Origin: a virus
Taxonomy: Duplodnaviria > Heunggongvirae > Uroviricota > Caudoviricetes
Direction: 5' to 3' (one strand)
DNA length: 30,004 nucleotides
IMG/VR virus record: IMGVR_UViG_2740892439_000007
Span: 1 to 30,004 of that record
Both the position numbers and the translations under genes were made by a program. Numbering within the stretch: position 1 is the first letter of the stretch; the number at the start of each line of letters is the position of its first letter. A model generated the notes under the pieces. The model searched no databases, had not been told where the DNA came from, and saw nothing but the letters and a program-made list of their open reading frames with translations. Below are positions 6,189-26,777 of this stretch, piece after piece.

Positions 6189-6261
6189 ACTACAGGTGCC
6201 CACCAGCATACAGAAAATGATTGTTTCCACATCAAGGAGATTTTAATGTTTCACTGAAACA

Positions 6262-6399
6262 TTAAGTAAGCCAGTGCATAATTCCATTTTTTACTGATCT
6301 TAAAAGCAAAATCAAAACGATGATGAGGATAATAGCCAGAATCTGGCTAATAACAGGCGCATCTAAAAATGCACTCAGGAACTGAAAAAAAGCGTTCAT
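6262..6399 (-). CDS. Small hydrophobic protein candidate (45 aa, MNAFFQFLSAFLDAPVISQILAIILIIVLILLLRSVKNGIMHWLT)
   Basis: ORF below the size cutoff of the supplied track; single predicted transmembrane segment; weak RBS. Confidence 0.3.
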   Translation of the reverse strand: MNAFFQFLSAFLDAPVISQILAIILIIVLILLLRSVKNGIMHWLT

Positions 6400-6441
6400 T
6401 CAGGTGGTTCCTTGTCAAATGTAAAGGTGCACTTGCTCACG

Positions 6442-6470
6442 TTGACGTAGAAACCCAACCCCTATATAGT
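6442..6470 (+). promoter_or_regulatory. Sigma-70-like promoter candidate TTGACG-N17-TATAGT
   Basis: Near-consensus -35 and -10 with 17-bp spacer; no convincing CDS downstream; iteron-like motifs and a hairpin (6555-6580) follow. Confidence 0.35.
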
Positions 6471-6516
6471 TGGATTCGGTGAATGAAAGTCGTTAACGTG
6501 AGCTTACGGCACATGT

Positions 6517-6541
6517 TTTCGGAAAAACATCAGGGAACGGC
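6517..6541. repeat. Iteron-like motifs (ttttcggaaaaacatc aggGAACGGC) related to the arrays at 13548 and 16514
   Basis: Shares the block GAAAAACATC-GGGAA with 16606-16625. Confidence 0.4.
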
Positions 6542-6896
6542 TAATTCCTTGATGCGGGTGGGGTCTGTAATGCAGACCCTATCTATTAACGTCATGATTG
6601 CATCTCAAATTTTCTCCTTATCTTCAATTAATCTACATTCATTTCATCTGTTAGCCACCACAATATGTAGAAAATGGCCCTCTTGCAAGTGCATAGCTTT
6701 GTGGATAACTCAGGAAGGAAAAAGTGGCTTTCGCGCACTTTAGACCGGACAAGGCGTTCGAAAAAGTCAATGGGAAGAAAAAATTTGTTAAAAATAACGT
6801 TTGTTTGAATTGTATATATTTATGCCTTTCAATAGTTAGCATCTTATTAACATCTTTTTTAAGAGATAGAGTTCAAAAATATATAGCTTCAACATA

Positions 6897-6916
6897 TACT
6901 GTATGTGTATACAGTA
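6897..6916. promoter_or_regulatory. LexA (SOS) box TACTGTATGTGTATACAGTA overlapping a TATACT -10
   Basis: Perfect CTGT-N8-ACAG dyad 17 nt upstream of the UmuD'-like start codon. Confidence 0.8.
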
Positions 6917-6932
6917 TTAAGAGGCGAGTATT

Positions 6933-7322
6933 ATGGGCTTCCCTTCTCCTGCGGCGGATTATGCTGAGAGCCGTATTTCTCTTGATCAGCAGATAATTAG
7001 ACATCCTTCAGCGACCTACTTCATGAGGGCAGCTGATAGTCATCATCGTGAGGGAATATTACAGGGTGCATTGCTGGTGGTCGATTCCTCACTTACCCCG
7101 GTTGATGGTTCTCTGCTTGTATGCGCTCTGGATGGGGAATATCGCGTAAAAAGATACCGGAAGTACCCACGTCAGCATCTGGAGGATTTAAGAACCGGTA
7201 AGAAGGAAGCATTGCCAAAGGATGACGATGGATGCACGGGCAGCAATGCCGTGTTTGGTGTGATCACTCACATTATCAACGACGCAAGAAGTGGCGAGTT
7301 TGATGATTGTCCCGTGATGTAG
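6933..7322 (+). CDS. UmuD'-like S24 peptidase-family protein, encoded without the N-terminal cleavable arm (HumD-like)
   Basis: Begins M-GFPSPAADY, i.e. at the equivalent of the UmuD Cys24/Gly25 cleavage site; Ser (ADSH) and Lys (RVKR) of the catalytic dyad are present; no upstream in-frame start is available. Confidence 0.8.
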   Translation: MGFPSPAADYAESRISLDQQIIRHPSATYFMRAADSHHREGILQGALLVVDSSLTPVDGSLLVCALDGEYRVKRYRKYPRQHLEDLRTGKKEALPKDDDGCTGSNAVFGVITHIINDARSGEFDDCPVM

Positions 7323-7359: not shown

Positions 7360-8460
7360 TCACACTGCGCGGAATGCGATTTCGCCAGGTATTACTTCAC
7401 CTTGCCAATACATTTGGGCAGCAACGCGATCTGCGAGGTCACGATAAATAGCCGTAAATTCGCTATCTGGACGACTAATAACGGTTGGTGTTCCGTTATC
7501 CAGATCTTCACGAAGAGAGATATGAAGTGGCATTTGGCCTAACAACTGCGTGTTGTATTTCTCGGCCAGTTTCTGTGCGCCACCGGTGCCAAAAATTGGC
7601 TCGTGATGACCGCAGTTACTGCAAATATGCACACTCATGTTTTCGACGATACCCAGTACCGGCACTTCGACTTTTTCGAACATCACAATGCCTTTCTTCG
7701 CATCGATCAGCGCGATGTCTTGCGGCGTAGTTACCACAACCGCACCAGTTACAGGAATGTTCTGCGCCAGCGTCAACTGAATATCACCAGTGCCCGGCGG
7801 CATATCGAGAACGAGATAGTCCAGATCAGGCCATAGAGTTTCCTGCAACATCTGCATCAGCGCCTTGCTGGCCATCGGTCCACGCCACACCATTGCATTG
7901 TCGTCGGTGACCAGATAACCAATAGAGTTGGTTGCCAGGCCATGAGACATGATAGGTGCCATGTGAGTACCGTCAGGTGAGGTTGGACGTTGGTTTTCCG
8001 CTCCCAGCATGGTTGGAATTGATGGACCATAGATATCGGCATCCAAAATACCAACTTTCGCACCTTCAGCAGCCAACGCCAGTGCCAGGTTCACCGCCGT
8101 GGAGGATTTACCCACGCCGCCCTTGCCTGAGCTGACGGCGATAATGTTCTTAACGCCATTAATGCCTGGTTGGTTTTTGACGCGCTTAAGCGTGGCAATG
8201 TTGTACGACAGCTTCCAGTCAATAGCCTTTGCGCCAGTGATACGGAGCAGATCACCACTACATTGCTCTTTCAGGTCTTCAAAAGGCTTATTCCACACGA
8301 AAGGCATGATTAGTTCGACATGCAGTGTGTCATCCATCAACGCAACATGGTGTAACGCTTTAAGCGTAGTCAGGTTGTGTTTCAGGGTTGGGTGCTGAAA
8401 ATTAGCCAGCGTACCGGCTACCATTGCTCTCAGGGCATCCGGCGATTTGGACTCGCTCAT
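7360..8460 (-). CDS. apbC: Fe-S cluster carrier ATPase ApbC/Mrp
   Basis: 366-aa product with P-loop SSGKGGVGKS and C-terminal CxxC; near-identical to E. coli Mrp as recalled. Confidence 0.95.
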   Translation of the reverse strand: MSESKSPDALRAMVAGTLANFQHPTLKHNLTTLKALHHVALMDDTLHVELIMPFVWNKPFEDLKEQCSGDLLRITGAKAIDWKLSYNIATLKRVKNQPGINGVKNIIAVSSGKGGVGKSSTAVNLALALAAEGAKVGILDADIYGPSIPTMLGAENQRPTSPDGTHMAPIMSHGLATNSIGYLVTDDNAMVWRGPMASKALMQMLQETLWPDLDYLVLDMPPGTGDIQLTLAQNIPVTGAVVVTTPQDIALIDAKKGIVMFEKVEVPVLGIVENMSVHICSNCGHHEPIFGTGGAQKLAEKYNTQLLGQMPLHISLREDLDNGTPTVISRPDSEFTAIYRDLADRVAAQMYWQGEVIPGEIAFRAV

Positions 8461-8617
8461 CCCGTCTCCTTTATTTTAATTTGCGCAATTGTCGCCTTGT
8501 AGTGTACTCCAGCTACGACATTTAATCATTTATGAGAAATGCTGTTATCACATGGCAGACATAAGGCCATTTTGTTACTATCAAGCCCCTTTTCACTACA
8601 AAGAAGTAATGCCTACT

Positions 8618-10651
8618 ATGACCCAAGTCGCGAAGAAAATTCTGGTGACGTGCGCGCTGCCGTACGCTAACGGCTCAATCCACCTCGGCCATATGCTGGA
8701 GCACATCCAGGCTGATGTCTGGGTTCGTTACCAGCGAATGCGCGGCCACGAGGTTAATTTCATCTGTGCCGACGATGCCCACGGTACGCCGATCATGCTG
8801 AAAGCACAGCAGCTTGGTATCACACCGGAGCAGATGATTGGCGAAATGAGTCAGGAACACCAGACTGATTTCGCAGGCTTTAACATCAGCTATGACAACT
8901 ATCACTCGACGCACAGCGAAGAGAACCGTCAGTTGTCTGAGCTTATCTATACTCGCCTGAAAGAGAACGGTTTTATTAAAAACCGCACTATCTCTCAGTT
9001 GTACGACCCGGAAAAAGGCATGTTCCTGCCGGATCGTTTTGTAAAAGGCACCTGCCCGAAATGTAAAGCGCCAGATCAATACGGCGATAACTGTGAAGTC
9101 TGCGGCGCGACCTACAGCCCGACTGAACTGATTGAGCCGAAATCGGTAGTTTCTGGCGCTACGCCGGTAATGCGTGATTCTGAACACTTCTTCTTTGATC
9201 TGCCCTCTTTCAGCGAAATGTTGCAGGCATGGACCCGCAGCGGCGCGTTGCAGGAGCAGGTGGCGAACAAAATGCAGGAATGGTTTGAATCCGGCCTGCA
9301 ACAGTGGGATATCTCCCGCGATGCGCCTTACTTCGGTTTTGAAATTCCGAACGCGCCGGGCAAATATTTCTACGTCTGGCTGGACGCGCCGATTGGCTAC
9401 ATGGGTTCCTTCAAGAATCTGTGCGACAAGCGCGGCGATACCACCAGCTTCGATGAATACTGGAAGAAAGACTCCACCGCCGAGCTGTACCACTTCATCG
9501 GTAAAGATATTGTTTACTTCCACAGCCTGTTCTGGCCTGCCATGCTGGAAGGCAGCAACTTCCGCAAGCCGACCAACCTGTTTGTTCACGGCTATGTGAC
9601 GGTGAACGGCGCGAAGATGTCCAAGTCTCGCGGCACCTTTATTAAAGCCAGCACCTGGCTGAATCATTTTGACGCCGACAGCCTGCGTTACTACTACGCT
9701 GCGAAACTCTCTTCGCGCATTGATGATATCGATCTCAACCTGGAGGATTTCGTTCAGCGCGTGAATGCCGATATCGTGAACAAAGTGGTTAACCTGGCCT
9801 CCCGTAATGCAGGCTTTATCAACAAGCGTTTTGACGGCGTGCTGGCAAGCGAACTGGCTGACCCGCAACTGTACAAAACCTTTACTGATGCCGCTGAAGT
9901 GATTGGCGAAGCATGGGAAAGCCGCGAATTTGGTAAAGCTATCCGTGAAATCATGGCATTGGCTGACCTGGCTAACCGCTATGTCGATGAACAGGCTCCG
10001 TGGGTGGTGGCGAAGCAGGAAGGACGCGATGCCGATCTGCAGGCGATTTGCTCTATGGGCATTAACCTGTTCCGCGTGCTGATGACGTACCTGAAGCCGG
10101 TACTGCCGAAACTGACTGAACGTGCAGAAGCATTCCTGAATACAGAACTGACCTGGGATGGTATCCAGCAACCGCTGCTGGGCCATAAAGTGAATCCGTT
10201 CAAGGCACTGTATAACCGTATCGATATGAAGCAGGTTGAAGCACTGGTGGAAGCATCTAAAGAAGAAGTGAAAGCAGCTGCCACGCCAGTAACTGGCCCG
10301 CTGGCAGATGATCCGATTCAGGAAACCATCACCTTTGATGACTTCGCCAAAGTTGACCTGCGCGTGGCGCTGATTGAAAACGCAGAGTTTGTAGAAGGTT
10401 CTGACAAACTGCTTCGCCTGACGCTGGATCTCGGTGGTGAAAAGCGTAATGTCTTCTCAGGCATCCGTTCCGCTTATCCAGATCCACAGGCACTGATTGG
10501 TCGTCACACCATTATGGTGGCTAACCTGGCACCACGTAAAATGCGCTTCGGTATCTCTGAAGGCATGGTGATGGCTGCTGGCCCTGGCGGGAAAGATATC
10601 TTCCTGTTAAGCCCGGATGTCGGTGCTAAACCTGGCCACCAGGTTAAGTAA
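8618..10651 (+). CDS. metG: Methionine--tRNA ligase
   Basis: [25 protein letters not shown] (HIGH motif), KMSKS, C-terminal tRNA-binding domain; near-identical to E. coli MetG as recalled; the track ORF start at 8489 is an upstream alternative codon. Confidence 0.97.
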
Positions 10652-10735: not shown

Positions 10736-10799
10736 AAACAATTTGTTTTCTACCTTTTGTTGATTGAGATAATAAGCCACATAAGAAAACAAATTGTTT
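10736..10799 (+). promoter_or_regulatory. Promoter with two perfect operators (10736-10748 AAACAA-T-TTGTTT; 10787-10799 AAACAA-A-TTGTTT) flanking an extended -10 TGAGATAAT (10765-10773)
   Basis: Operator centres 51 bp apart, the same spacing as at 15412/15463. Confidence 0.65.
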
Positions 10800-10812
10800 C
10801 GGAGTGGTTGAA

Positions 10813-11112
10813 ATGTTGAACATTACCCAAGCCTACCAGGTGGCATTGATCAGTTCATCTCATACATCAGAGGAAGATGCTCGCCGATTCATGATCGCAA
10901 GCAATGAGCTGGATTGGGTTTCACAAATTGACGGCGGTTGTATTGTCCACGCCGGGTTACAGGATGATGTCTGGAAAGAGGACTTGCGTCGATATGGTAT
11001 ATCCGAAGGCGCAATTGCTAACATTCAGAAAGTACTTGATGTAGGCTTTGACTGTGTACATTTTGATTGTGGTGCGCCGATCGTTGAAGGGCTTGAGTGC
11101 TGGTGTTGGTAG
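10813..11112 (+). CDS. Hypothetical protein (about 100 aa)
   Basis: ATG at 10813 with GGAG 8 nt upstream; the track start at 10804 is an alternative codon. Confidence 0.6.
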   Translation: MLNITQAYQVALISSSHTSEEDARRFMIASNELDWVSQIDGGCIVHAGLQDDVWKEDLRRYGISEGAIANIQKVLDVGFDCVHFDCGAPIVEGLECWCW

Positions 11113-11282
11113 AGTGTATAAGCGGATCAATGAGTTACGGAAACAGTTAATAATGAGGAGCTTGTAATAAGCTGTATACCCTAGAAAAGCTAGACTAGGG
11201 AATAAAATGACGTGAAACTGGGCGGGACAGTAAATAATTCCGAATGATAATTGAACAAATAACCCCTTGCTCGGAGCTTGGA

Positions 11283-12482
11283 ATGACTGATACCGCTTTT
11301 TCAAAATCGTTACAAAAAGAAGTCGATCCTGAGCAGTACTTGGCGCTAAAGAATTTAGATGACAGCTCGGTTCATGCTATTGCCCGTGACGATATCATCT
11401 GCCCCATTTGCAAAGTTGGAGGTGGTTCGTTCGTTAGAGCCACTAGGAATGGTGGCTATCACAAGAAGGCGCATTTCAGATTTACCGGTGAAGATGGTCA
11501 AGGCCATCATCCATCATGTGATTTCTATGGAGATAGATTAACATCTGAGGTGAAGCAGCACCTTGTCTCATTCACAAAAGATCGAACAAAGTATTCGCAG
11601 GTAATACGAAAGCTGGTCTGTGCCGGCATACAGGAAGGGATATTTACTCAAGAAAAAATGTGGCAGATGAGGGAATGGTTCTTCAATAAGCGAAAGGATT
11701 CCACATTTGAAATATGGTTAGAAAGCGAGCATTTAGACTGGCTTTATTATATTAGTGGGTTACGTGATGCATATCTAGCATGGACAACTCCTGATATTCT
11801 ACCTTTCGCGCCCATTCAGGTTACTGTCCCTGGTTTTTCTTGGAGGCGTGCGATTGACAAAGAGGTGCTAAGAGTTCACATCAAGACTCTCCAGCAATTG
11901 CGTGAAATTTCAGTCTCACATAGTGACATTGCTGTAATCTTAGAACACATAAACAATAATCGTGACCGCACAATTCTCGATCCATCGCATTTGGAGGACG
12001 AGATAAGTAAGACCTATAAGCTTACTAGTTTTGTGATGGGCAATTACATTGAGTTTCAGACAAAAACGGTTAGCGACAGAGCATACGGGGAAGCTAAGTT
12101 TCTGGCATTTGCAGCACTTTTGTTGTTCGTGTCAGATTGGGACCTCAACATTGCTATTGGTAAGTTTTCTAAGATTGCCAGAGTGAAGGAGGTTGATGAC
12201 ATGCTGGCTGGTAATTTCATTGGTCTTAATCCTTACTTCCGATACGACCTGGCTAATGCAGTGAAGAGATTGCAGGATAACTGGCCGATTGAATACCAAG
12301 AGTTGGAGCATTGGAATGTTGAGAAATCCATGCGTGACGCATATGAAAAGTGGCGTGCGACAGAGCTGAATTCGCTCCACCCCTATTGCCAGACTTGTAT
12401 ATTGCCAAACATGAGAAAGAAGTCGCACAAGACGAGCAAGTCAGGCAGTGGATTAAGAACGGGGATGTTTGATTGTAATTAG
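11283..12482 (+). CDS. Hypothetical protein (about 399 aa) with an N-terminal Cys/His cluster (CPICK ... HHPSCDF)
   Basis: ATG at 11283 has GGAG 6 nt upstream, whereas the track start at 11244 has no RBS; no family recognised. Confidence 0.65.
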   Translation: MTDTAFSKSLQKEVDPEQYLALKNLDDSSVHAIARDDIICPICKVGGGSFVRATRNGGYHKKAHFRFTGEDGQGHHPSCDFYGDRLTSEVKQHLVSFTKDRTKYSQVIRKLVCAGIQEGIFTQEKMWQMREWFFNKRKDSTFEIWLESEHLDWLYYISGLRDAYLAWTTPDILPFAPIQVTVPGFSWRRAIDKEVLRVHIKTLQQLREISVSHSDIAVILEHINNNRDRTILDPSHLEDEISKTYKLTSFVMGNYIEFQTKTVSDRAYGEAKFLAFAALLLFVSDWDLNIAIGKFSKIARVKEVDDMLAGNFIGLNPYFRYDLANAVKRLQDNWPIEYQELEHWNVEKSMRDAYEKWRATELNSLHPYCQTCILPNMRKKSHKTSKSGSGLRTGMFDCN

Positions 12483-12616
12483 CTTAATCAATCAGTTGAT
12501 AATGGCGGTCACAATTTGATTCTTTTCTATAAGAACCCGTTGATCGCCACTACTCCCCTCCCATACCAGCAATCACATCATTAAATATCAATAGGTTAAC
12601 GTTGTTTATACCAATA

Positions 12617-13330
12617 AGAAAACAACTAAATAACAGATCAACGAAACATCAACGCTTTCTCCCGATTTGGTCTAAAAAATTGACGTTATCACACATCACT
12701 TCTTATACCCGTAATTCTACGCAGCAGATAGCGCCACAGCGTCCAAATTTCACCACAAACGACTCAACACACTACCAACAAAAACACACGCTCAAAATCG
12801 CTCCCGTTGCGTTACACAACCATATAAACAACTTATTTTCAGGCATAACAAAACAACTAAATAACACATATGACATTCCCCAAAACAACCAACCTCTTTA
12901 TGGCAGGCTACCGAAAAGACCCACCTCTTCTCCCCAGGCTACCGGACAACCAACCTAACTTTCACAGGCAATCCGAAAACATTCATACGCGCGATACCCA
13001 CGACACGCCATTCCCCAAACAGCGAAGAAACACCAGAATCACTGAAACCCCAACGAAGCCTGTTACCGCAAGGATTCTCTCAATCCCAAAAGACACGAAA
13101 CATAACAATCACGGGAAACGCCATTACCCAATACACGAATAACTACAAAAGCCCTTCACGCACTCCAGACAAACAACTCAAACACAATAACGAAAGCAAT
13201 CGCCCACCTGCCATTACTCCATACACGGAGAAGAACAATCACCAAAACGACGAGAACACCCCATAGAAGAACCACCGCAAAACGAACGAAACCATTTACA
13301 CCGACAGAGAGAACAACACACCCAATTCAC
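12617..13330 (+). other. About 0.7-kb noncoding tract with strong A+C strand bias (roughly 75 percent A+C on the plus strand) and internal repeats
   Basis: Hand counts on two 60-nt lines gave 75 and 77 percent A+C; track ORFs here are low-complexity P/T/N/Q/H-rich translations. Confidence 0.7.
12888..12981 (+). repeat. Three tandem ~30-bp direct repeats (CCACCTCTT...CCAGGCTACCG family)
   Basis: Units at about 12888-12920, 12921-12950, 12951-12981; same family as 15811-15900. Confidence 0.6.
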
Positions 13331-13466
13331 CAACAGAAATAGTCGCCGTATAGAACATTCTGGAAGGAGTGAGCATTAACGCCTATAGAGAGGTTGAGAC
13401 AGATAAACACGAAGAAAACACAACATGTATAGCGAAGAAGCCAGGTATGTATAAGTGGGGAGGGAA

Positions 13467-13488
13467 GGAGGGGTGTCGCCTCCTTTTT
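13467..13488 (+). terminator. Hairpin plus T5 terminator candidate at the end of the AC-rich/purine-rich noncoding tract
   Basis: ggagg ggtgtcg cctcc followed by TTTTT. Confidence 0.45.
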
Positions 13489-19879: not shown

Positions 19880-21438
19880 CTAATCTCGTTTCAGAACTCC
19901 AAAATCGAATGCGCCATCAATAGGCAATACACCTTCTGCAAAGCCAGGTGTGGTGTCGATGATGTGTTTTCGCTCATAAGAGTGAGACAACAGGTATTTG
20001 TTGCTAATGTCAATGAAATCAGTGATAAAACACACGTTTGCCTGATTCTTCTTGGCTCGTAAGCCACGACCGACACGCTGCCTCATTTCAACTTCTGCTT
20101 TCCCACCACCAGCCAGAATGACCGCACCAACGCTTGGCACATCAACACCGACATCCAGAATAGTCGAGCCTATTAAAACATCTATTTCGCCAGACGCTAA
20201 ACTGTTCAGCTTTGCTTGCCTTGTCGCCTGGTTTGATTCCCCATAGATGAAGTCAACTCTAAGGCCGGACTCCTTCATCATCTCCATCAGGATTTGCCCG
20301 TGGCGTTTAAGACGAACCAGAGTCATGCAATTGAGAGAATGTTGCTTATAGAGCAATGCTTCGCGCACAATGGCCTCGTTACGTCCCAAATTATACACGA
20401 TCCCCAACTGATAAGCCTTTTGGTAGGCTGTGCTCATACCTACTCTAAAATTGAGGTGTTTGTTGGCAAGTTCGGCTTGATTCTGGCCTCGTCTGGCTTG
20501 TAGGCAACTTTATGATAAAGGAAGTATGGTTTTGCCAGAATGCCTCTATCAATCAGGTACTTTTCCGTGACTTTTATTTCAATTCGCCCGGCCACTGCCA
20601 TCAGGCGCATGTTGGCTTCCGTCGAATCCTTCATGAACGGCGTGGCTGTAAGCGCCAGACGATAGTCTGCGTTCACACATAATCTGGCGATGTCATAGAA
20701 ATTAGAGCCTGAAGACTCATGCGCCTCTTCCAGAATAAGAAGAGAGACACTTGAAAGGAAGCGTTTCACCAACTCCCGACGTTTGAGGTGGTAGCTTTTC
20801 TTATCTGGTGTTGCATCGCGTGGTGGTTCTTCGAGGAAACTTGCAAGAGTTTGAACTGTAGCGACGTTGATATGTCGTGATACCTGGAACTCACCCGAGC
20901 CAATTACTCCAACCTTTTGGTCCTTTAACCACGGTTCGCCATTTTCGGCGCGGTAGTCGATGGATCTCTGGAAGTTTTCGGCCATTTGAAACATCAGAAC
21001 AGAGCGGGTTGTTAAAAATAATGTCATTCGACCGATACGTGCAGCTGCTTTGCAGGCAACGTTAGATTTCCCGCCACCAGTAGCGATCTGCGCAATCATC
21101 ATTCCCTCTCGAACCAGTGTTTCTACTGTCTGATCTTGGTACGCATAATCAGGGTTGTATGGAAATGGGTTAACCGCCGGATTTGGTTTACCCAGCGCCG
21201 GGGCTTTGTCTTTGCGGATATGAACACATTTGATGCCCGCCTTGTTCAAATTAGCCGCCACGGGCTTGGCAAAGCCAGCAGGGAACGAGTTTTTGCTCCA
21301 GTTGAACATTGTGCTTGTGCCCTTCCAGTCGCCAGCCTCGACTTCGTAGCTCAACATTTGCTGCACCAGTTGCTTTACCTTGTCATCTGCGCCAGAAATA
21401 AGCGCATTTACTGCGTTAGATACAATCCGAACAGTCAT
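19880..21438 (-). pseudogene. SF2 DExH-type helicase interrupted by a -1 frameshift (N-terminal part 20440-21438, C-terminal part 19880-20437)
   Basis: Motifs I (ATGGGKS), II (LILEEAHE) and III (LTATP) lie in the upstream ORF and motif VI (QRVGRGLR) in the downstream ORF; the frames change at a T4 run (plus-strand AAAA near 20447). Confidence 0.75.
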
Positions 21439-24889: not shown

Positions 24890-25522
24890 ATGACGGTCGA
24901 AAAAGACGAGGTAAAAACTCGCCTGACACCAGCGGAGTGGGCCGAAGCTGAAGCCAAATGGACGTCAGGCGAATATACACTCTCAAAGCTGGAGGAAGAG
25001 TACGGCATTCGTCGTGAAACACTCTCCAGACATTTCAAAAAGCGAGGATTAGAGAAAGGCGCGGACTCTGTTGGGAAGATGGTTCGTGAGTCTCTTAAAT
25101 CTGACGCAGAGCTTCGCGCTAAAGCCCGTGCGGAAAAGATAGAAGAACGTCGTACACGTTATGACGGCTGGGCGTATGCGTTGGGGCAGATGGTGATGGT
25201 CGAAGTCACTACGGCCAAACGTGAGAGTAAGCCTTTAGGGGCGATTGAGGATTCTCTCAAGAGCTTACAGAGAGCCAGTAATACCCTTGCAAAATGCTTT
25301 GAAGTTTCGTCCAAAGCATTGGGCATGGATCATGCGGAAAATGACGAGGAAGAAATTCCGAACCTGGTATTTGGTGAGCTTACACCTTCCCAGGTGGCGA
25401 AATTACGTCAGGAAGACGACGAGCCTGAAATCATCGATGACGAATTGCTTGAGACGTTGGAAGAAGAAGCTCTAAGCGAATTTGATGCGACAGATGATGG
25501 AAGTGAAGGGGAGGACGAATAA
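24890..25522 (+). CDS. Terminase small subunit candidate (210 aa)
   Basis: Position directly upstream of TerL; acidic C-terminal tail; stop overlaps the TerL start. Confidence 0.6.
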   Translation: MTVEKDEVKTRLTPAEWAEAEAKWTSGEYTLSKLEEEYGIRRETLSRHFKKRGLEKGADSVGKMVRESLKSDAELRAKARAEKIEERRTRYDGWAYALGQMVMVEVTTAKRESKPLGAIEDSLKSLQRASNTLAKCFEVSSKALGMDHAENDEEEIPNLVFGELTPSQVAKLRQEDDEPEIIDDELLETLEEEALSEFDATDDGSEGEDE

Positions 25523-26777
25523 TGGCAATCCCGTCCTCGCTCAGTCTTGTGCAACTGCATTCTGGACAGATGAAAGTCTTCCAGTCTCCGCATCGATTTA
25601 AAGTTGTTTGTGCTGGTCGACGCTGGGGAAAATCCCGGTTGTCGATCTCCACTATTATTCGTGCGGCGGCAAAGGAAAAAAAGCAAAGGGTCTGGTATGT
25701 CGCTCCTACTTACCAGATGGCTCGCCAGATTTTGTGGGACGATCTACAGGAAGTTCTGCCTCGTAAGTGGGTTAGGAAAAAGAACGACACCACGATGACA
25801 ATCGTGTTGAAGAACGGTTCGGAGATCGCCCTCAAAGGTGCTGATAAGCCTGACACTCTGCGCGGCGTAGCGTTGCATTTTGTAGTGCTTGATGAATTTC
25901 AGGATATGAAGCTGACACCTGGTACAAGGTGTTACGACCTACTCTTTCATCGACACGCGGCGGTGCACTGATCATTGGTACGCCAAAAGGCTTCTCGGAA
26001 TTTCACAAACTGTGGACTATAGGCCAGAACGTAGAGTTGCAAAGAAAGGGACAGTGGAAGAGCTGGCAGTTTGTAACTGCCGATTCTCCGTTTGTACCTA
26101 CGGCGGAAATTGAAGCTGCTAAGAACGATATGGACCCCAAATCGTTCGCTCAGGAGTACCTGGCCAGCTTTGAGAACATGTCCGGGCGCGTTTACTACCC
26201 GTTCGATCGTAACGTGCATGTAAAACCGCTTCAGTTCAACCCTCGGTTGCCTATATGGGTAGGGCAGGACTTCAACATTGACCCGATGTCTTCAGTAATT
26301 TTGCAACCTCAGCCAAATGGTGAGCTATGGGCAATTGATGAATTGGTGCTCTTTTCCTCTAACACGGCAGAAGTTTGTGATGAGCTTGAGAGACGCTTCT
26401 GGCGCTGGAAATCACAGGTAACGGTATTTCCAGATCCGGCAGGTGCTTATCGCCAACATGCTCGTGGGGAGTCTGACGTAGACATATTCAAAGAGAAGGG
26501 ATTCTTACGTGTCGATTATTCGAAAAAGCACCCGCCAATTGCGGATCGTGTTAATGCTGTTAACCGAATGCTGATGTCCGCATCTGGAGATATCCGGCTG
26601 TATATCGATCCGAAGTGCAAGCATTTGATTGATTCACTGGAAAAAGTTATCTACAAGCCTGGAACACGAGATATGGATAAGACAGGTGGCATTGAGCATA
26701 GTGCAGACGCATTGGGCTATCCAGTACATCGTAGGTATCCAGTCAAAAACCGTGTTATTCTTGGTGGTTCTCGATAG
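25522..26777 (+). pseudogene. Terminase large subunit interrupted by a -1 frameshift
   Basis: Walker A (VVCAGRRWGKS) and Walker B (HFVVLDEF) in the first ORF; the second ORF's frame is open from 25896 and encodes the nuclease half. Confidence 0.8.

Follow-up and report, generated by a model that had tools for sequence, protein, structure and literature searches.

A backbone gene of SSU5-type phage-plasmids belongs to a mobile single-gene family often found near anti-phage defence genes

Results

The gene and its reading frame

The DNA analysed here is a stretch of 30,004 nucleotides (nt) from IMG/VR virus record IMGVR_UViG_2740892439_000007, referred to below as the window, and by its sequence it is an SSU5/pHCM2-type (SSU5-supergroup) phage-plasmid. 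Its + strand contains, at 11283–12482 with the stop codon at 12480–12482, an open reading frame (ORF) that a first-pass annotation had singled out as a protein of 399 amino acids (aa) to which no function could be assigned. We found that this gene, hereafter the target gene, belongs to a family that is a conserved, autonomous and horizontally mobile single-gene cassette, located in variable or cargo regions and in defence islands. Its members were present on SSU5-type phage-plasmids, lambdoid prophages, IncX1 and rhizobial plasmids and integrative islands, and on the bare chromosome. The description of the gene can now be narrowed to that of a mobile stand-alone cassette that accompanies anti-phage defence systems and is a candidate conflict gene.

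The coding sequence of the target, a protein with a putative zinc ribbon and a helical domain, was defined from the ORF list, a match to protein family PHROG 12525, 32 homologue clusters and alignments. A ribosome-binding site, GGAG, was read from the sequence at 11273–11276 (+ strand) and is separated by 6 nt from the ATG of 11283. Initiation at an upstream ATG (11244) would extend the protein to 412 aa; this codon has no ribosome-binding site. In an alignment of 57 homologues Met1 was invariant, and the N-terminal motif M-x-x-T-A-[YF]-S...E-[LV]-D (MTDTA..S..E in the window) was invariant or nearly so. Because GGAG precedes it and Met1 and the N-terminal motif are conserved, we regard 11283 as the real start.

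The other end of the frame is altered. The frame of 399 aa is present as read, but this is not the native length, as intact orthologues have 396 aa and the window copy is frameshifted, with residues 1 to ~362 in the native frame. In a DNA alignment to the 99.6%-identical plasmid of E. coli AR_0104 (NZ_CP020118), one C was absent from the + strand of the window between 12365 and 12366 (GAGCCTG to GAGCTG), and the last 37 residues as read (LNSLHPYCQTC...FDCN) are consequently out of frame. This 1-nt deletion is a private mutation or a sequencing error. It was found in none of 36 E. coli RefSeq plasmids with the same allele, all of which aligned with one gap at this site. Two further genes are intact in AR_0104 and look broken in the window: the terminase large subunit (418 aa in AR_0104) is read as two ORFs of 149 and 282 aa (25522–26777), and a DEAD/DEAH-box helicase (519 aa in AR_0104) is apparently split into 185 and 332 aa (19880–21438). 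The three broken genes indicate that the window probably contains insertion or deletion errors, or that the element is decaying.

One explanation of these lesions is that the target gene of the window is a decaying pseudogene without function; a deletion shared with no related plasmid, and the split terminase and apparently split helicase of an element that may be degenerating, would agree with this. We nevertheless consider it very improbable. The frameshift removes only the last ~34 native residues, which form the least conserved part of the protein, lie beyond the last conserved helix (residues 343–361) and are predicted to be disordered (pLDDT 30–52). Moreover, loss of one C from a CC pair is a frequent type of long-read assembly error, and several independent frameshifts in DNA that is otherwise 99.6% identical fit sequencing error better than decay. 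The frameshifted tail is a sequencing error or else a mutation that probably left the conserved core (residues 1 to ~361) intact.

A conserved place in the phage-plasmid

The first-pass annotation had placed the gene at the edge of the element, next to host DNA. This placement was incorrect. The apbC (− strand) and metG (+ strand) genes, which occupy 7360–10651 between an S24-peptidase gene and a DUF5983 gene, lie inside the plasmid as known cargo, and all E. coli matches were plasmid-borne: in 5,426 complete E. coli genomes, the 3.2-kb region gave 251 matches, all of them on plasmids (mostly ~110 kb) and none on a chromosome. The gene order in the AR_0104 plasmid is S24 peptidase, apbC, metG, a small upstream gene, the target, a run of small genes, ParB genes and terminase. 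The apbC-metG pair is missing from the corresponding position in SSU5 and pHCM2. According to its citation in PMC12452169, work by Tam et al. had described metG on phage-plasmids earlier in Shigella sonnei and linked it to antimicrobial survival.

The target gene is the E. coli/Shigella-type orthologue of SSU5_107 (YP_006906739), with 59% identity to SSU5, 86% to the pHCM2 (S. Typhi) type and 72% to the K. pneumoniae type. A common order of a small DUF5983-like gene, the target and a long AC-rich non-coding gap was found in the SSU5, pHCM2, K. pneumoniae and E. coli AR_0104 plasmids. In the window, the small gene (10804–11112, + strand; DUF5983, YeeW-like, PHROG 5003) was recognised by Pfam PF19419 (E = 1.6e-10) and is co-directional with and upstream of the target. 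In the relatives its counterpart precedes the orthologue directly or with one gene between them; in SSU5 it was placed two positions upstream by blast clustering, and in pHCM2 and the K. pneumoniae relative it was identified by position and size. Because SSU5, pHCM2 and the K. pneumoniae relative all carry the gene in equivalent surroundings, these results indicate that it belongs to the conserved backbone of SSU5-type phage-plasmids and is not an edge insertion.

Operators and promoters upstream of the gene

A double-operator region had been proposed upstream of the preceding gene, and both palindromes are real. Two copies of AAACAAnTTGTTT (10736–10748 and 10787–10799, spanning 10736–10799 on the + strand) bracket a likely promoter with a −10 element GATAAT at 10768–10773. 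When up to one mismatch was allowed, nine sites of AAACAAnTTGTTT were present in the window compared with 0.18 expected, with + strand starts at 249, 963, 3871, 10736, 10787, 14505, 15412, 15949 and 24837, each shortly upstream of a + strand gene. One of the sites precedes a 561-aa ORF (988–2673) whose SSU5 counterpart, assigned by position and size, is annotated as a DNA methyltransferase, and another precedes the gene ahead of terminase. Among the 88 loci compared, AAACAAnTTGTTT was confined to four SSU5-type loci. The palindrome looks like the operator of a regulon that extends over the whole phage-plasmid.

The predicted promoter between the two operators, whose placement was read from the sequence, is likely that of the DUF5983 gene, and probably also drives the target. 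In pHCM2 the gap between the DUF5983-like gene and the target is 10 nt, indicating that the two are co-transcribed there. In the window a gap of 170 nt lies ahead of the target, and a consensus scan of it detected a weak sigma-70-like site, GGGACA-16-GATAAT (11224–11251, + strand; 9/12 matches), which could on weak evidence be an internal promoter; the region held fewer such sites than shuffled controls.

A putative zinc module and a helical domain of unmatched fold

The AlphaFold model of the protein (pLDDT 78, pTM 0.70) consists of a beta-rich N-terminal domain (residues 1–100, with strands at 5–7, 12–14, 48–51 and 64–68) and an all-alpha C-terminal domain (residues ~103–361; 11589–12365, + strand), most of which was modelled with pLDDT 80–97. 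The Cys/His cluster that had been suggested as a possible zinc-binding module lies in the N-terminal domain. Both of its halves, C40-P-I-C43 (11400–11411) and H75-H-P-S-C79 (11505–11519), were present within 11400–11519 on the + strand, and in the alignment of the 57 homologues, which extends down to 19% identity, C40, C43, H75 and C79 account for four of the seven columns without any variation; this is far above chance. The conservation of all four ligands suggests that CPIC...HHPSC is likely a CCHC zinc site. Near-invariant positions beyond this site were T4, Q18, D37 and, in the C-terminal domain, R130, W132, W286 and a loop G-N-x-I-G-L-N-P-F (N311, G314 and P317).

When the family profile was compared with PDB sequences, the top match was the eIF5 zinc ribbon (residues 8–108, E = 0.025), which is marginal and was treated as generic. 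The model gave no fold match for the C-terminal domain, and no nuclease among its fold matches, in PDB and BFVD structures. The N-terminal domain is acidic (median pI 5.8) and the C-terminal domain mildly basic (median pI 8.7). No catalytic motif was recognisable in the protein. An HNH or His-Me finger nuclease was considered and rejected, since none of the 57 members had a Pfam HNH-type match, H64 is not invariant and the invariant His and Cys residues are all putative zinc ligands. The protein also had no transmembrane segment, as the highest hydropathy over 19 residues (median 1.42) was below the threshold; a transmembrane or pore-forming role for the LLAFxALLLFVS helix was rejected because the segment is too short and its hydropathy sub-threshold.

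An undescribed family

The window protein matched PHROG 12525, a family of unknown function, over nearly its whole length (E = 2.7e-196; residues 1–383 against profile positions 1–384 of 399). When searched as a single protein against Pfam, NCBIfam, PADLOC and PDB sequences, it was assigned to no family, and its only PADLOC match was a spurious one of 30 residues (SP_VI, E = 0.0067). Likewise, none of the 57 diverse members matched Pfam, NCBIfam or PADLOC (PADLOC-DB 2.0.0, no match at E ≤ 0.001). A literature search by six protein accessions gave no match. No homologue among capsid, tail, packaging, replication or lysis proteins, of the kind that would have identified the target as a structural or housekeeping protein, was found by sequence or by fold. 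The family and its fold are undescribed in the libraries and literature searched, and the protein is not in any testable named defence, anti-defence, structural or housekeeping family.

We describe the family as one of two-part proteins of 375–400 aa. When 1.84 billion representative proteins were searched exhaustively with a profile, 175 clusters at 50% identity were retrieved (E ≤ 0.001). In the best 150 of these 175, the full-length members had ~340–440 aa and a single architecture with no fused extra domain, and the shorter ones looked like fragments. A genome scan located the family in Alpha-, Beta- and Gammaproteobacteria and in cyanobacteria. It is rare in viral data sets: it was present in 4 of 50,697 phage genome records, all of them SSU5-type phage-plasmids, and in 33 of 2.9 million IMG/VR contigs, about half of which were SSU5-type.

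Settings of the relatives

The relatives of the target lie in very different places. The chromosome of Pectobacterium brasiliense carries a 76%-identical orphan gene after pth-ychF, and our reading of its upstream sequence places an apparent insertion sequence fragment beside it. In lambdoid prophages of K. pneumoniae (loci L143 and L144, 10001–11215) and S. Enteritidis (L147, 8001–9218), relatives of 50–51% identity are located between the replication genes and the Q antiterminator gene, and ~190 nt of upstream sequence are common to the Klebsiella and Salmonella copies. The Klebsiella prophage homologue is followed by a gene for a Panacea-domain protein and by an S-type pyocin (bacteriocin)/cloacin-immunity pair. 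On an integrative island of Y. enterocolitica, a 52%-identical relative and a complete Lamassu system (LmuA-Cap4, LmuC and LmuB) point in divergent directions, and the same island has genes for ArdC (anti-restriction), CbtA, a TraI-type relaxase and integrases near the relative. Wherever the average GC content of the enterobacterial locus was 46–49%, the homologue gene had 43–45%.

Plasmid copies were also found in variable surroundings. On IncX1 plasmids a homologue of 29% identity is flanked by the dqlB toxin gene on one side and by a variable NACHT or Abi gene on the other, beside hns-hha-topB. In the IncX1 plasmid pHFQ2 it maps to 23.3 kb, within the cargo region and outside the leading region, where the place of oriT is inferred and not annotated; the relaxase gene and ddp1 are ~20 kb away, at 43.3–45.0 kb. 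A Rhizobium plasmid has the order GajA-GajB-homologue followed by a reverse transcriptase gene, and on a Yersinia plasmid the defence candidate PDC-S06 is two genes away from the homologue.

Two neighbouring proteins recurred in subsets of islands. A 387-aa protein that matched neither Pfam nor PADLOC is encoded directly downstream (~11170–12333) in the alphaproteobacterial islands L009, L014, L019 and L021, and a 257-aa protein, also without match, precedes the homologue in seven other islands. Both are possible clade-specific partners, and profile comparison showed no relation to the target. The rhizobial 387-aa and 375-aa (RHE_PE00001 family) neighbours were considered as distant paralogues of the homologue and rejected, as profile comparison gave a probability of <1%.

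A zinc ribbon joined to a helical domain is a common build of DNA-binding proteins, and the C-terminal domain of the family is mildly basic. The target could thus be a DNA-binding regulator or serve some other housekeeping purpose of the mobile element, for example as a zinc-ribbon transcription factor for neighbouring cargo or as an accessory protein of replication or recombination. Its location next to variable cargo in many element types, which resembles that of defence-island regulators, and the position of the IncX1 copy beside hns-hha-topB would suit such a role. However, neither a helix-turn-helix nor another DNA-binding family was detected in any member, and the neighbours vary in identity and orientation, including convergent ones, with no consistent target gene among them. 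The gene also occurs as an orphan, and the element types that it visits have no common core machinery to serve. We therefore regard a regulatory or housekeeping role as quite unlikely.

Recurrent proximity to Gabija

Neighbourhoods of the family were compared in 82 species-representative loci by means of our own ORF calling and clustering, with no matched control set. The neighbours were highly variable, and the only recurrent ones in the 82 loci were Gabija, tyrosine integrases and the defence candidate PDC-S02. A complete GajA and GajB pair was located within four genes of the homologue in 17 of the 82 loci, and 29 of them had an OLD- or UvrD-like gene at a distance of no more than 10 kb. 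The pairing involved three subtypes of Gabija and all of upstream co-directional, downstream co-directional and convergent arrangements. In the family tree it occupies no fewer than seven separate positions, with Gabija-free relatives in between; the Gabija-linked members have 30–45% identity among themselves and 20–30% to the window protein. In the distant loci GajAB is often convergent with the homologue or 1.7–3.8 kb from it. Because convergent arrangements occur and the pairing was frequently gained and lost, we take it to reflect a shared habitat or a loose functional tie and not an obligatory three-gene system.

When 118 other neighbour clusters were searched with PADLOC, further Gabija genes, Lamassu, CBASS cyclases and effectors, retron reverse transcriptases, Hachiman, Mokosh, PycTIR, NERD+UvrD and argonaute-associated nucleases were identified. 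PDC-S02 and PDC-S06, NACHT and Abi genes were also among the neighbours, and Pfam assigned neighbour clusters to resolvases, transposases, TraI/TrbI and antitoxin domains. The idea that the homologue is the GajC of type II Gabija was rejected, as GajC is a split MazF-like protein and unrelated (PMC13069673).

The AC-rich tract downstream

Directly 3′ of the target gene lies a non-coding tract (12483–13360) whose + strand is 39% A, 31% C and 12% G. It is followed by a terminator-like hairpin at 13462–13488. A direct repeat, AAAACAACTAAATAACA, was seen by eye twice in the tract, at 12621–12637 and 12849–12865, ~228 nt apart. The AC fraction was 0.64–0.78 over most of the downstream 0.8–1 kb in the SSU5, pHCM2, K. 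pneumoniae and E. coli phage-plasmids, and in the loci compared the tract was located at ~6192–7200 (L087), ~6228–7230 (L088), ~8201–9200 (L004) and ~7708–8700 (L001). In pHCM2, SSU5 and the Klebsiella plasmid, a copy of the operator lies ~340–360 nt into this gap.

Rfam and tRNA scans of the window gave no match. The tract could correspond to a long unstructured RNA or to a region related to replication or packaging. That it encodes an RNA partner common to the whole family was considered and rejected, as the compositional bias is limited to the SSU5-type clade and is absent downstream of distant homologues.

Discussion

The target gene fits the known category of accessory conflict genes on prophages and plasmids. 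Our preferred reading, which we hold tentatively and at somewhat less than even chances, is that it encodes a single-protein factor for defence against, or exclusion of, phage or other foreign DNA. In the mechanism that we propose, the zinc-ribbon head would recognise a protein of the invader or a nucleic acid, and the response would be executed or relayed by the helical domain, which bears the GNxIGLNPF loop. Transcription of the target would coincide with that of the DUF5983 gene, or follow it closely, and would start from the promoter that is flanked by two operators of the plasmid-wide regulon. We favour a role in defence or exclusion because of the company in defence islands, the orphan chromosomal copy, the cargo rather than leading position in IncX1, the rarity in phages and, indirectly, the phenotype of a Klebsiella plasmid. 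This SSU5-like K. pneumoniae plasmid reduces the plating of three lytic phages 10- to 100-fold, as measured for the plasmid as a whole (PMC8969562), and it also lowers DNA uptake.

Several observations weigh against a defence or exclusion factor. No effector domain, whether nuclease, NADase or transmembrane segment, could be recognised, and no PADLOC model matched any of the 57 members. DefenseFinder v1.3 detected no defence system in pWPMR2-like or pHCM2-like phage-plasmids (bioRxiv 10.1101/2025.09.12.675607), although pHCM2 carries the gene. In the lambdoid prophages and the phage-plasmid, the gene is co-oriented with early lytic or operator-controlled genes, an orientation that suits an early phage function no less than defence expressed by the lysogen. 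Acidity of the N-terminal domain is unusual for a zinc ribbon that binds nucleic acid. Lastly, an association with neighbours, seen here without a matched control, is also a mark of anti-defence genes and of regulators in the same islands.

The protein could instead act on the opposite side of the conflict. It would then be an early-expressed inhibitor that shields an incoming phage-plasmid, prophage or plasmid from the immunity of the host, possibly from OLD-family (Gabija-type) nucleases, with the island copies next to Gabija as regulators or self-protection factors. No defence system adjoins the family more often than Gabija, which does so recurrently and in several arrangements. The nine-site operator regulon to which the target belongs includes a site just upstream of the ORF with the putative methyltransferase counterpart, and the lambdoid prophage copies, between the replication genes and Q, are in the direction of the early-right operon. 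The lack of an effector domain, the acidic N-terminal domain and the ArdC gene on the Yersinia island also point in this direction. On the other hand, the family is nearly absent from sequenced phages outside the SSU5-type phage-plasmids, and the IncX1 copy lies in the cargo region, far from the relaxase gene and the presumed oriT. The family also has an orphan chromosomal copy and copies between defence systems on integrative islands. Furthermore, the phage-plasmid clade of the window has no Gabija nearby, and the protein had no structural match to solved proteins, in a library whose coverage of Gabija-inhibitor structures was not confirmed. We consider an anti-defence inhibitor unlikely, though less so than a regulator.

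The Gabija pairing is the most specific lead that the comparison provided. Defence and counter-defence can be combined in the view that the target is a single-gene immune or counter-immune module of unrecognised fold, functionally tied to OLD-family (Gabija-type) systems; such a module would be either an independent exclusion factor against phages or plasmids, or a protein that senses, tunes or blocks Gabija-like nucleases. We put this forward as a possibility and hold it, with both of its variants taken together, with limited confidence.

SSU5-supergroup phage-plasmids are common in clinical Enterobacteriaceae, as exemplified by pHCM2 in S. Typhi and by metG-carrying pWPMR2-like elements in multidrug-resistant Shigella sonnei and E. 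coli. A conserved and unannotated gene of their backbone could explain part of the Klebsiella plasmid phenotype, and its relatives occupy defence islands from Rhizobiales to cyanobacteria. If the target is a defence or counter-defence module, it adds a single-gene system with an unrecognised fold; if not, it is another conserved hypothetical protein.

The closest comparison is with PHROG 12525/SSU5_107, annotated as "hypothetical protein" in SSU5, pHCM2 and the SSU5-type elements of K. pneumoniae, to which the window gene is homologous over its full length and equal in position. The window copy differs from these in its frameshifted tail and in the apbC-metG cargo located two genes upstream. 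At the level of the fold, the protein shares with zinc ribbons such as the eIF2-beta/eIF5 N-terminal domain a CxxC knuckle, which is followed by a beta-hairpin and a second pair of ligands. Prophage morons and single-gene defence cargo are similar in being lone low-GC genes with their own conserved upstream region in variable regions, and the homologues likewise occur alongside toxin-antitoxin, bacteriocin and defence genes. In contrast to cargo of this kind, the gene is part of the backbone in SSU5-type phage-plasmids. Moron status would depend on expression in the lysogen and a phenotype of the host.

Gabija consists of the OLD-family ATPase-nuclease GajA and the UvrD-like helicase GajB, and distant members of the family lie near complete pairs of these genes. 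The target is homologous to neither of them (no PADLOC match), and the canonical system needs its two genes only. Convergent layouts exclude an obligatory shared operon, and neither the window nor the other SSU5-type loci examined have a GajA or GajB gene adjoining the target, so that the gene and Gabija do not form one operon in this clade.

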